Shown: piece by piece, positions 57,126 through 60,649 of the stretch
Numbering within the stretch: the stretch's first letter is position 1
Layout: each line of letters begins with the position of its first letter
Assembly: GCF_964194025.1 (NCBI RefSeq)
Contig: NC_134477.1
Location: 38,750,001-38,814,000 of the forward strand
DNA: 64,000 bases
Reading direction: 5' to 3'
Source: Convolutriloba macropyga
Taxonomy: Eukaryota
Program-made: the position numbers and the translations under genes
Notes under the pieces: generated by a model
Database searches by the model: none
Seen by the model: the letters and a program-made list of their open reading frames with translations, nothing else
What the model was told of the DNA's origin: nothing

Positions 57126-57759
57126 TCAAGTACGGTTGCTCTCATATTTCTCATGACGACCCAATGAGTTTGCAGCATCCTTTGCTCGCCTCAGCGCGTA
57201 TAGACTATCACCGCAAATCAGTTTAACAGCTTCTTAAAAAAACACTCGATAACCAAGACACCGACATTATTATTATTTTAAAATTATAGTTAAAAACCTT
57301 TGAAATAGAACTCGTCATCGGCAGAAGCAAGCCTGCGGCCTTCAAAATTGTGGTTGCTGCGTTGACCAAACCAACACGTATTCAACCTATCTTCCTTTGG
57401 AAGAATTGACCGTGCTAGAAATCTACCAACTGCTGCGTAGTCGCCAGACGAGCCTTCATAGGACAACAAATTAACACCCTTATAAACTAACGTCTTCCTA
57501 GGCAATGGAGCCTGAAGTTTTACACGTCAATCATTCTAAAACAATGAAATGACAAGTTGCTACCAACTTGCTTCTTGAAAGATAAAAAAAATTATATAAT
57601 TAGAGGAGATTAAATACTAACAAGGACTTTCAGACCACGCGAAACTTCAAGCATTCGATTACGCGCATCCACTTCAACAACATTACTCCGTCTCAACACC
57701 GCTTCAAATGTCTCCAAACTATTATTAAGCGACTCTATTCCATCATTCACACAAAACAT
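57126..57759 (-). CDS. BEN-like protein B, 152 aa, 3 exons (57759-57622, 57511-57298, 57232-57126)
   Basis: Introns GTTAGT...TTCAG (110 nt) and GTTTTT...TTAAG (65 nt) join an open frame; the product aligns by eye with the C-terminal domain of gene A. Confidence 0.6.
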
Positions 57760-57939
57760 TTTGGTATCTGAAGCCGACAAGGACTAACATAGAACATTTT
57801 GACAGCTGTGCTTAGGGTTATTAACATTATGAGACCAAAAAAACAGTCAGCGGTCAACAAATGAATTTCAATGAAAATGTTCAACGAATAAACAAAATGA
57901 TCAATTTAAAACAAATGGACCAGAAGAGTACTATATAAT

Positions 57940-59321
57940 CTATAGAGCTCCGCTTAACCGTTTCTCACGAAGGCGTTGGTTGACAAGCCTCAGAGTATTG
58001 CGATACAGCTTATCAGTGTACTGATCGCCAAAACAAAACTTAACCGCTTTCTGATAGAGAGCAGTCCTCTCTGTATCAGCAGCTTTTCTTCCATTTATTC
58101 CACTTAGAGTTTTCTTTGGTTCGATACAAAGCGTTCGTCTTTCCTCATCGTCCCATAAAACCTTTACGATATTGAACGCCATTTCCACAAACGTAGCACC
58201 CCCTAGGTCGTGCAAATTTTGCCCTTTGAACATGAGGACCTCTTTTTCAACCTCCTGACAATCATCTTGTGCAGCCATGTCTGCATTGCGTGAGAGCGGG
58301 ACCGGTGTTTCTGACATCCTATAAATCTCGTCAAGTGCCCGCCTGGAGAACTTTGACAGTTCGTCCAACAGACGATCGCTGCGATCCATTCTGGCCTCAA
58401 TTCTTGAGATGACTCGTTCAAACCTTTGCACCAGGTCCATCTAGGAAAAACGAATGGTTGCTACCAACCACAAATATCCTTAAGAACTTAGAAACTTCAT
58501 GATTTTCAAAGAAAAAAACAAAGTATACTCTAGACTATTCAACTCTGATTACATTCGAATTCAGCCCACTAAGTTTAATGACATTGGATGAATTACCAGG
58601 AAAAACAGTTATGTTCAAAACAGTATGCATTTCAATAAAAAAAAGCAGTTGCTACCAACCGCTAAAAAAAGCAGACAAAAACGATTTAATTTACCACTTG
58701 ATCATTGTTGATGTTCACTGCAACCTCCTTATTAGGAACCACTCTCTTGTTTAGCACTTCGGGCCCAGGCACGTCAGCTTCCTCATCACTTTCATCAACC
58801 CAACTTTCACGATCGATCTCAACACTTTTGTTACCTCGCCCAGGGGTTTCGACCAATCTGTTGACTGACTGCTCTTTCAAGAAACTTGCGTTTTTCTCCT
58901 TCTCAGCAGCGAGACGAGCCCTCTCAAAATTTTGTGTCAAATTCATGTCTCTTATTTCGACGCCTTCAGAAAGTTTTAGGTTCATATAATCTCCTAAGTG
59001 CTTCAAGATAGCTTCTGGACCATGTGTAACTACGAGACCATTATGAAAACACTTTGGTTTCTTGTCATCCTTAAAAGCCACATCCTCGTATCTCAACGAC
59101 AGTTTGATGTTATTCGTGAGGAAAGAAGGCCATCCGCTGTGGTCATGCTTCACAAGATCAAATTTATCATCACGTTCGAAGTAAACGAGAAAATAATAAT
59201 CTTTCGGTAGCTCGACCATATTTTCCTTTGCAGCAGTTCGGGCTGATTTTTTTCTCGTTACAGGGGTGCAGACGCCCCTTTGCGCAGTTTTGTTTTGCAT
59301 TGCAGGCTGTGAGATGCTCAT
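57940..59321 (-). CDS. Transposon accessory protein A, 375 aa, 2 exons (59321-58695, 58440-57940): YFLVYF N-terminal domain, acidic linker, coiled coil, BEN-like C-terminus
   Basis: Phase-0 intron GTAAAT...TTCCTAG (58694-58441) joins the 211-aa and 166-aa ORFs; the C-terminus has a BEN-like pattern (NIVKVLWDDEE...D..R...QKAV...VNQRLRE). Confidence 0.7.
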
Positions 59322-60649
59322 CTAAATTGAACATGAAATGGCCGAAGTTAAAACAAAAAAATTATCAAAAATTTCTTAAAAAAAAAAGAAAGTAAATCTT
59401 GAGCTCTAGCAGAACTAAAGAAGTAATTTATGAAATGCCTGGTAATTAAAATGGCCGCAATTTAGCGCAAGGGAACGGCCTCCAGCTGTCGTTTTTCCAT
59501 ATTTAAAAGTTCTAAGATCTGATTCGTCCACAAAATTTTGAGGCAATGCGACCAAGAAAATGACAAACAATAGACAAACTTATTTTATGAAGCAAGAAAA
59601 AAATCAAACCACAGCAGAACTGAGCCAGCGAGCGCCATTTTAGCTAATGCGCCTGTGATGCTCCAGCATTTCGCGGCGCACCATGGAATTATCCAAGCAA
59701 GTATCTTGCATCGACCAACAAAACAAAAAAAAAACCAAGAGATCAATAATAGCTTGCATATAGTTCCATATGGCTTCAAATTTGAGAATAAAAGATTTGA
59801 CTGTCTAAGCTCCCCCAAGCAGTCAATTTGAACAAAAACGTTTTAATTTACCTCATCGTTGTTGGGCTGCAACACAAAGAAGACAACTGATAATTAAAAT
59901 TAAAGCAATAATTATTGAGTCAAAAATTGGTCCAATGCTACCATTGAACCACACAAGACAAGAGCACGGGGTAGGAAAAGGAATAGATATTGTTCAAACT
60001 TACCGTTGAATGTACTGGTTGGATTTTGACAGAGGAGATATTCAAAGATGCAATTTTCGCAAATAACAATGAAATTCAAGAAGCAAGGTTATCTGAAAGA
60101 ATTACAAAATTATGGGTACATTTTTTATAAAACCTCATCTACTACCAGCAGAACATTCAGATGAGCTTAGCAGCTCTACCATACCTCTACTACTTTGATA
60201 CAAGCTCAGGGAACCAATTGCTGAGCCAATAACACCCCGAATGTGTCAATTTTCAGCGATTTTCCTGGGAAAAATTAGGCCAAAAAAGGAAAAATGGCCT
60301 GACACTCAGAAGTAATTTACTCAATAGTGACCGAATCAAATTCGACGGAACTGGTATACAGTGAAACAACAATTCAAGCTGCACTGAATAGGATAACCGA
60401 TTGGAAAACTGTGTAAGTGCACTACAAGAAATAATAAATTTCGGGTTTGGTACCAAATTCCCTATATCTAACGGTCTTCCCCAGTATTGTCATTAATAAC
60501 ATGTTAATAACCTTGGTTATGAAAATGAAACTTTGTGGAAACGTTACCCACACACTGACAAAGCTAGGCACACTTGTCAGAGCCCTCAAAACGCACCCAA
60601 ACAAATTTTAAAGGTCAATAACCTCGAAAAACGAGCTCAAAAAGGGTCA

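Follow-up and report, generated by a model that had tools for sequence, protein, structure and literature searches.

Clade-specific RNA hairpins and a possible self-encoded splicing switch in a CACTA-like transposon family of Convolutriloba macropyga

A CACTA-like transposon and its predicted genes

Analyzing 64,000 nucleotides of the Convolutriloba macropyga genome (the window, meaning the whole stretch that was analyzed; NCBI RefSeq assembly GCF_964194025.1, contig NC_134477.1, positions 38,750,001 to 38,814,000), we found a minus-strand DNA transposon whose predicted introns carry small hairpins with a GUAG loop, while elements of sister clades in the same genome carry hairpins of other builds at corresponding places. 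We propose that these hairpins form a clade-specific code, likely bound by an element-encoded protein, with SGNH as the most probable candidate, that would switch the splicing of a single long transcript. Judged from sequence comparison, this proposal stands at about an even chance.

The transposon is ~25.4 kb long and occupies positions 48201..64000 of the window on the minus strand, with its 3' end CTGGGG at 48201 and its 5' end CCCCAG 9,646 nt past the window end. These termini are flanked on both sides by TT, a 2-bp target duplication, in agreement with the CCC ends and 2-bp duplications described for animal CACTA elements (PMC1636069), and palindromic 10-nt subterminal units are present at both ends, as in the subterminal repeats of CACTA/EnSpm elements. 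By its ends the element fits the CACTA/EnSpm (CMC) group; the transposase points there weakly, matching PF02992 (Transposase_21; E 0.0017) and PF06869 (E 9e-7) below the Pfam cut-offs in both cases. Tandem arrays of 181 and 538 bp lie upstream of the genes. Arrays of ~180 and 538 bp (61210-62255 and ~10 kb past the window end, locus L194) occupy the 5' part of every long copy read.

The genes follow each other in the order A, B, SET-transposase, and SGNH exon, all on the minus strand. Gene A (57940..59321) has one exon for a Tudor-like N-terminal domain (59321-58695), a weak fold match to Tudor domains with a best E of 0.06, and one for a coiled coil and a BEN-like domain (58440-57940). The BEN-like domain has no Pfam match, and the first 15 Foldseek matches listed for it are all BEN domains (BANP/BEND; probability up to 1.0, best E 0.07). 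Gene B (57126..57759; exons 57759-57622, 57535-57298, and 57232-57126) is a paralogue of this BEN region, whose profile matches gene B in relatives. A SET domain fused to a Tnp2/DUF1258-like transposase follows at 53994..56970, out of frame in the window copy and a single frame of ~1000 amino acids in others. The SGNH/GDSL-like exon (53080..53587) encodes 168 amino acids without a start codon of its own and keeps the Ser-Asp-His triad. In 22 sequences the SGNH blocks GDS, G, GxND, and DxxH are invariant or nearly so, as in SGNH/GDSL hydrolases; 8 of the 22 match PF13472 below cut-off, and a search of the SGNH profile against solved structures returned only two weak matches, both SGNH acetyltransferases.

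Three small exons are predicted in addition. A non-coding exon (60004..60092) was placed from conserved splice signals, including a 3' splice site ahead of it, and a 15-nt micro-exon (59852..59866) ends in ATG-AG before a GT donor. Between the transposase stop and the SGNH exon, a non-coding cassette exon (53770..53810) is found only in the window's own clade (clade A, below), where it is 33-69 nt long and of unconserved phase; it could be a poison exon. A conserved GATACTGC word lies ahead of it and of its counterparts in subfamilies S2-S8. The conserved 3' splice site ahead of exon 60092 suggests a promoter farther upstream or trans-splicing, and trans-splicing to acceptors before each ATG may occur.

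The predicted introns are supported by comparison across subfamilies: in diverged subfamilies the frames of genes A and B run on across introns 58694-58441 and 57621-57536, and each of seven subfamilies compared has a GT..AG-ended counterpart of the 5' intron 60003-59867. The window copy contains one frameshift and two stops, none of which occurs in a copy that is 99% identical. Contigs of four sequencing runs all read another letter at both stops, 57529 in gene B and 53358 in the SGNH exon, so the stops may be assembly errors or private to the window copy, which those runs may lack. Over 52800-60600 these contigs cover introns and exons alike with zero GT-AG joints and are uninformative on expression.

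Hairpins of the window's element

Four hairpins with a G(GUAG)C loop, all read on the minus strand, lie where the preliminary description had placed them; across both strands of the 64-kb window, no other GTAG-loop hairpin has a stem of at least 5 bp. One of 10 bp (59928..59951) lies in the 5' intron, 61 nt ahead of the micro-exon acceptor, with counterparts in S2-S8. The gene A intron holds two, one of 8 bp (58644..58663) located 30 nt past the donor and one of 7 bp (58454..58471) located 13 nt ahead of the exon 2 acceptor, where a counterpart sits at 11-41 nt in six subfamilies. The fourth, of 8 bp (57552..57571), lies 16 nt ahead of the gene B exon 2 acceptor, a position also occupied in S3 and S4 (15 and 29 nt). 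The hairpins at 58454-58471 and 57552-57571 are each one G-U pair longer than first described, and RNA folding gives the four z-scores of -4.6, -3.5, -2.9, and -3.0. Their placement in predicted introns, also reported at first, is supported by the cross-subfamily comparison above.

Four further hairpins of the same build have GGAG loops. One with a single mismatch and a G(GGAG)C loop, which is GUAG in S2-S4, lies directly past the micro-exon donor (59797..59826); with -11.7 kcal/mol and a z-score of -1.7 it is weak alone, and it contains one arm of a long-range duplex described below. The other three have U(GGAG)A loops: two lie past the transposase stop (53964..53985, directly past it, z -4.6; 53920..53947, z -4.8) and one past the SGNH stop (52982..53003, z -2.7).

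An element-specific signal at the RNA level

From searches with the transposase and gene B, 80 relatives were chosen, and 50 host kinase loci served as control. In the 19 clade A copies among the first 40 relatives, 93 of 514 GTAG words on the sense strand form hairpin loops, against none of 367 on the antisense strand. No GTAG-loop hairpin was found at 622 words in the 21 other relatives of this set, at 1,415 words in 312 kb of host kinase loci, or at 201 words in the rest of the window. The hairpins are far more frequent than chance would give.

Since the clade A copies are not independent, the test was repeated with one representative per subfamily, picking sites by the hexamer GGTAGC alone and scoring the next five outer pairs. 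Of the 33 non-coding sense sites that eight representatives contain, 30 pair at four or more of the five positions, compared with 3 of 67 host-locus sites and 1 of 7 sister-clade sites. When 3' arms were swapped among sites, the mean number of pairs fell from 4.70 to 2.56 (maximum 3.30 in 2000 shuffles), in line with the original remark that stems differ in sequence yet stay paired. In nine subfamily representatives 54 of 56 hairpins are non-coding, although more than half of the searched sequence is coding. The stems of these 54, defined symmetrically, contain 48 G-U against 4 A-C pairs, which extends to the family what had been noticed in the window, that imperfections are G-U pairs on the sense strand only.

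The core 12-mer shows no genome-wide enrichment (163 versus 198 for the reversed control). The 12-mer of the U-A-closed class is moderately enriched (1,081 versus 773), and 1 of the first 30 loci with it has a stem longer than 6 bp, namely the window's element. Rfam covariance models gave no match over the hairpins at E <=1; the only matches were sub-threshold microRNA models on the terminal palindromes. A general host intron or branch-point signal is rejected by the 12-mer counts, the hairpin counts in host loci, and the hexamer test. Hairpins that are specific to the sense strand and to the element are most simply RNA structure. The strand bias, the G-U excess, the covarying stems, and their absence from the host loci sampled thus support an RNA-level, element-specific signal that would be read by a protein.

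Hairpin codes differ between clades

The preliminary description regarded the G(GUAG)C loop as invariant and the hairpins as purely intronic. Neither holds across the family: closing pairs include G-C, U-A, A-U, and C-G, GGAG and AUAG loops occur, and hairpins also follow the stop codons of genes A and B, the transposase, and SGNH in several clades.

The variation was mapped onto a protein tree of 79 elements; the other two of the 81 were dropped for low coverage. GUAG-loop hairpins, on the sense strand only, recur in eight subfamilies, which make up clade A. All eight share G(GUAG)C in the 5' intron and the gene A and B introns, and the hairpins after the transposase and SGNH stops have U(GUAG)A, replaced by U(GGAG)A throughout the branch of the window's subfamily and its sister (S1 and S2). 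The next relative, S9, has a G(AUAG)C loop element-wide. In the sister clade, which has none of these loops, a bulged C separates the lower stem from three base pairs that carry a GNNAG loop. This code was found at 58 non-coding and 0 coding sites in 14 representatives, with the lower stem formed at 54 of the 58 and compensatory changes in the upper stem; there is no such bulged hairpin in clade A and one unpaired instance in the host loci. In two subfamilies of the GNNAG clade (O11 and O12) the bulged C has become A at nearly every site. Sites fall into two classes in each of two clades, closed by G-C or U-A in one and built as TCT..GGA or GCT..GGC in the other.

Searches with SGNH added 20 and then 9 further loci. 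Seven have C(AGUG)G tetraloops and others bulged AAC-N4-GUA hairpins (the bulged UGAG code), both located in the gene A intron, after stop codons, and ahead of the SGNH acceptor. At L257, L258, L261, and L259 the C-AGUG-G loop has no bulged C; we take this loop to resemble that of the iron-responsive element, whose bulged C is missing here.

At least four codes coexist at corresponding places in one genome, each shifting together at unrelated sites. A reader encoded by the elements would lead to such a pattern, for which a fixed host reader accounts poorly. We therefore infer that the reader is encoded by the elements.

A long-range duplex linking the micro-exon to the SGNH exon

The SGNH exon would obtain its start codon from the micro-exon. 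With the phase left free, the best acceptor ahead of the SGNH exon matches the micro-exon in phase in all 24 representatives, and in the window the micro-exon, 6.3 kb upstream, would read into it as M-S-S-I-L-L-I-G-D-S-N. Relative to the starts of A, B, or SET, the frame of the micro-exon does not fit in 10 of the 19 cases that could be scored.

The two introns that such a joint would merge can pair with each other. In the window, the 25-bp duplex has its 5' arm in the intron just past the micro-exon (59793..59817) and its 3' arm 59 nt before the SGNH acceptor (53647..53671), both on the minus strand, and the distal arm pairs across the hairpin loop. All nine subfamilies have a duplex of this kind, in which the intron following the ATG micro-exon pairs with the one preceding the SGNH exon over a distance of 5-9 kb; the distal arm lies 54-83 nt before the acceptor, and outside the window's subfamily the paired stretch is 13-21 bp of differing sequence. 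In all nine it is the best partner (-27 to -55 kcal/mol), and 0 of the 194-275 other windows are as good. The 5' arm overlaps a GUAG, GGAG, or AUAG hairpin in 8 of 9 subfamilies, and the distal arm matches the hairpin loop in S1, S3, S4, S6, and S7, changing together with the loop in the window's subfamily. In the GNNAG clade, a hairpin is located where clade A has the distal arm. Several selectors as in Dscam were ruled out, as there is no second conserved long helix.

A duplex overlapping one of the hairpins supports a role of the hairpins in splicing. The preliminary description had proposed a signal for a protein that controls splicing or processing of the element's transcript. The RNA level of that signal and, through the duplex, its link to splicing have gained support; its attributes of an invariant loop and an intron-only distribution have been lost.

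A candidate reader encoded by the element

Four clades allow three possible trees, which we compared with 23 taxa. SGNH unites the two unbulged-tetraloop clades, as well as the two whose hairpins are bulged, and the alternatives are rejected (approximately unbiased test, p 0.009 and 0.011; the discordance rests on 167 columns). Transposase, SET, and BEN-A reject the SGNH-type grouping (p 0.007, 0.008, and 0.025). By these tests hairpin architecture follows the SGNH tree and not the transposase tree, also for the sites between genes A and B.

SGNH-only elements point in the same direction. One multi-copy family has only the SGNH gene in 23.8 kb read from its left end, with the right end beyond the stretch read, and keeps two cognate hairpins inside the intron of that gene. 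Multi-copy elements at L248, L249, L254, L270, and L273 have CCC ends, long tandem arrays, and, in the part read, only an intact two-exon SGNH gene. Together, the clade-specific codes, the SGNH tree discordance, and the SGNH-only elements lend independent support to element-encoded autoregulation, which the preliminary description had raised as a possibility.

An SGNH-like fold that binds RNA has a precedent in Oskar, whose inactive SGNH-like domain does so (PMC4754038). Among 24 distant relatives of the element's SGNH chosen from 150 listed, five match Pfam OSK below cut-off, and distant relatives show layouts of coiled coil plus SGNH. In its fullest form, our proposal is that an SGNH-fold RNA-hairpin reader controls splicing of the element, that reader and code co-diverged into non-cross-reacting pairs, and that a swap of the SGNH module rewrote the code element-wide; taken as a whole, we place this chain somewhat below even.

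Proposed switch and alternative explanations

In the proposed switch, one long pre-mRNA would carry all genes of the element. When the reader is absent, the duplex would form and loop out A, B, and the SET-transposase, so that the micro-exon is joined to the SGNH exon. Once made, the reader would bind the loops and hold the donor-side hairpin shut; the distal arm covers the hairpin loop, so the duplex fold and the hairpin fold would exclude each other. Bound reader would also cover nearby 3' splice sites, with acceptors 11-41 nt past hairpins; less message would then be made for the reader itself and for A and B, leaving more transcript for the transposase form. The outcome would be a negative feedback acting as an early-to-late switch. 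The direction of this effect is the weakest step and a guess.

Several observations weigh against this proposal. For the duplex, a cross-subfamily matrix has the cognate arms as the best pair in no more than 6 of its 9 rows (S1-S4 are related), and in an all-against-all scan the duplex ranks first in 5 of 9 subfamilies and falls below threshold in S9. Sister clades, the GNNAG clade among them, carry hairpins but no such duplex; for five micro-exon candidates the pairing ranks 53-136 of 144-172. Distances from hairpin to acceptor range from 11 to 300 nt and some subfamilies have no such site, a pattern equally compatible with a loading role and with steric blocking. For the code, six loci (L103, L244-L247, and L279) show no clear one by the patterns used, and GUAG and AUAG also fit the Musashi consensus. 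For the reader, the tree discordance is one event that could be convergence or long-branch error, and the Tudor-like and gene B alignments decide nothing between the trees. Branch rates offer only a hint, SGNH changing most on the stem of clade A plus S9 and gene B on that of clade A. The SGNH protein is only mildly basic, keeps the full triad that Oskar's inactive domain lacks, and matches PF17182 (OSK) in none of 22 members. The SGNH of the AGUG clade has its own ATG, a trait that also fits a swapped SGNH module.

The same code and splice switch might have another reader within the element, the Tudor-like/BEN protein A, the BEN-like B, or the SET-transposase, with one BEN paralogue perhaps reading the 5' hairpin class and the other the 3' class. 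The two site classes seen in each of two clades would suit such a division, as would the finding that gene B changes most on the clade A stem, and the many sites inside the A and B introns are what autoregulation by these proteins predicts. However, the BEN matches are DNA-bound structures, for which the palindromic subterminal repeats are likelier targets, hairpin architecture is discordant with the trees of transposase, SET, and BEN-A, and SGNH-only elements keep hairpins, although these could be served in trans. We consider a reader of this kind unlikely. Host factors restrict splicing of the Drosophila P element intron, and host RNA-binding proteins of the Musashi or hnRNP A/B types might likewise read the loops, so that productive splicing is confined to germ or stem cells. 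Musashi binds its core motif in stem-loops (PMC6502878), and GUAG and AUAG fit this core; Musashi-1 also binds AGNN-type loops (PMC9972320), of which AGUG is one. Against a host reader stand the coexistence of at least four codes at corresponding places, with loops and bulges that co-change at unrelated sites within a subfamily, the lack of such hairpins in the host loci sampled, and the poor fit of GGAG and of the bulged pentaloop to Musashi; this explanation, too, seems improbable to us.

A further alternative separates the hairpins from splicing, leaving only the duplex to it: the hairpins would be RNA loading sites for export, 3'-end formation, stability, or anti-silencing chromatin tethering. 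Hairpins that follow the A, B, transposase, and SGNH stops in several clades, the variable spacing to splice sites, the SET, Tudor-like, and BEN domains of the element, and the box C/D-like units 3' of its SGNH gene (below) all speak for such a role. It is at odds with the many sites in short introns that leave the message, several of them 11-30 nt ahead of an acceptor, with the one site that overlaps the duplex in 8 of 9 subfamilies and whose loop the distal arm matches, and with the GNNAG-clade hairpin in the position of the clade A distal arm. We regard it as a minor contender, of about the same standing as the two preceding ones. Far less probable is that the palindromes act as DNA, either as protein sites or as single-strand hairpins; the element is a DNA transposon with BEN-like proteins and its non-template strand is the sense strand, but the arms vary around a fixed unpaired center, the opposite of a dimer site, G-U pairs outnumber A-C pairs 48 to 4, and the duplex arms keep fixed distances from splice sites that are 5-9 kb apart. 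Sister-clade loops lack GUAG, and for this reason the hairpins were not taken as mimics of the U2 branch-point loop or as signals for trans-splicing. An SGNH reader of a splice-switching code remains our preferred explanation.

Other repeats in and around the element

Eight GCGC-TGTGAYG units lie at 49700..52770 on the minus strand, six with a TCTGA-GCGC partner 10-20 nt on. GCGC-TGTGAYGA units also occur 3' of SGNH in other clade A subfamilies, 5-11 per element, with zero on the antisense strand in 8 of 10 long stretches. These paired units resemble box C/D or K-turn motifs, and they are possibly a further RNA signal, for a host K-turn protein.

Different subfamilies (L068, L076, L155, L156, L246, L247, and L103) carry, in different introns, a stretch several hundred bases long whose ends are the same throughout, present up to four times in L246 and L247; it is probably a nested non-autonomous mobile unit. 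A member of the family from another clade (L252) lies on the plus strand directly left of the window, its SGNH gene ~1.3 kb before position 1. At 36600-38000 the window contains a cluster of nested inverted repeats, probably miniature inverted-repeat transposable elements, unrelated to the hairpins. No related locus was confirmed in metagenome contigs.

Significance and comparison with known systems

If SGNH is the reader, a DNA transposon would encode its own splicing regulator, making a switch like that of Rev and the Rev response element (RRE) in a cut-and-paste element. It would also add a second RNA-binding SGNH fold, relevant to how Oskar's RNA-binding domain arose, and would provide at least four naturally diverged small protein-hairpin pairs, a natural orthogonal panel. 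Should the reader be a host protein, it would still be unusual for a dispersed RNA code to have been rewritten repeatedly in a single genome.

The element resembles maize En/Spm, with its tnpA and tnpD, and Schistosoma SmTRC1 in its animal-type CCC termini, 2-bp duplication, and Tnp2-like transposase (PMC1636069, PMC13547354). In maize Spm and SmTRC1 one transcription unit is thought to be alternatively spliced, the short form skipping the transposase (PMC1636069, PMC13547354). The passages on these elements in both sources leave the choice between transposase and accessory forms unexplained, describe TnpA as a DNA-binding regulator, and contain no RNA structure or self-encoded splicing regulator; the present family offers a testable, sequence-based answer. 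Unlike in En/Spm, the short form predicted here would encode SGNH, and a SET domain is fused to the transposase. In the literature covered, we found no account of such hairpins or of SGNH genes among CACTA elements; the family may be described in repeat databases, subscription journals, or supplements, which lay outside this scope.

The GUAG or AUAG sequence exposed in a stem-loop fits the core of Musashi-binding elements (PMC6502878, PMC9972320). Unlike those, the hairpins here have a strict tetraloop, most sites lack the final U of (G/A)UnAGU, and relatives have GGAG, AGUG, or bulged GNNAG loops. As in Oskar OSK and the SGNH esterases of long interspersed nuclear element (LINE) ORF1 proteins, an SGNH-like fold would be tied to RNA-protein assembly (PMC4754038). 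Unlike Oskar OSK, the SGNH protein here stands alone, is ~168 amino acids long, keeps its triad, and has no OSK match.

Other elements mark their own RNA with short hairpins that vary between lineages in loop or bulge, as in retroviral Rev/RRE, phage N/boxB, the coat/operator hairpins of RNA phages, and LINE 3' stem-loops. In Rev/RRE, the protein that moves expression toward longer messages is made from an early, fully spliced one. Such self-encoded operators use arginine-rich peptides, coat folds, or reverse transcriptase in viruses and retroelements, whereas here the carrier is a DNA transposon with 5-9 dispersed sites and a candidate SGNH fold. In the docking site and selectors of Dscam and in RNA bridges, a covarying duplex lies beside distant splice sites and competes with an alternative fold. 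Unlike Dscam, this family has a single duplex that would skip three whole nested genes, and its competitor is a loop-coded hairpin. By analogy, we conclude that the element would work like Rev/RRE, N/boxB, and the Dscam-type pairings while belonging to none of them.

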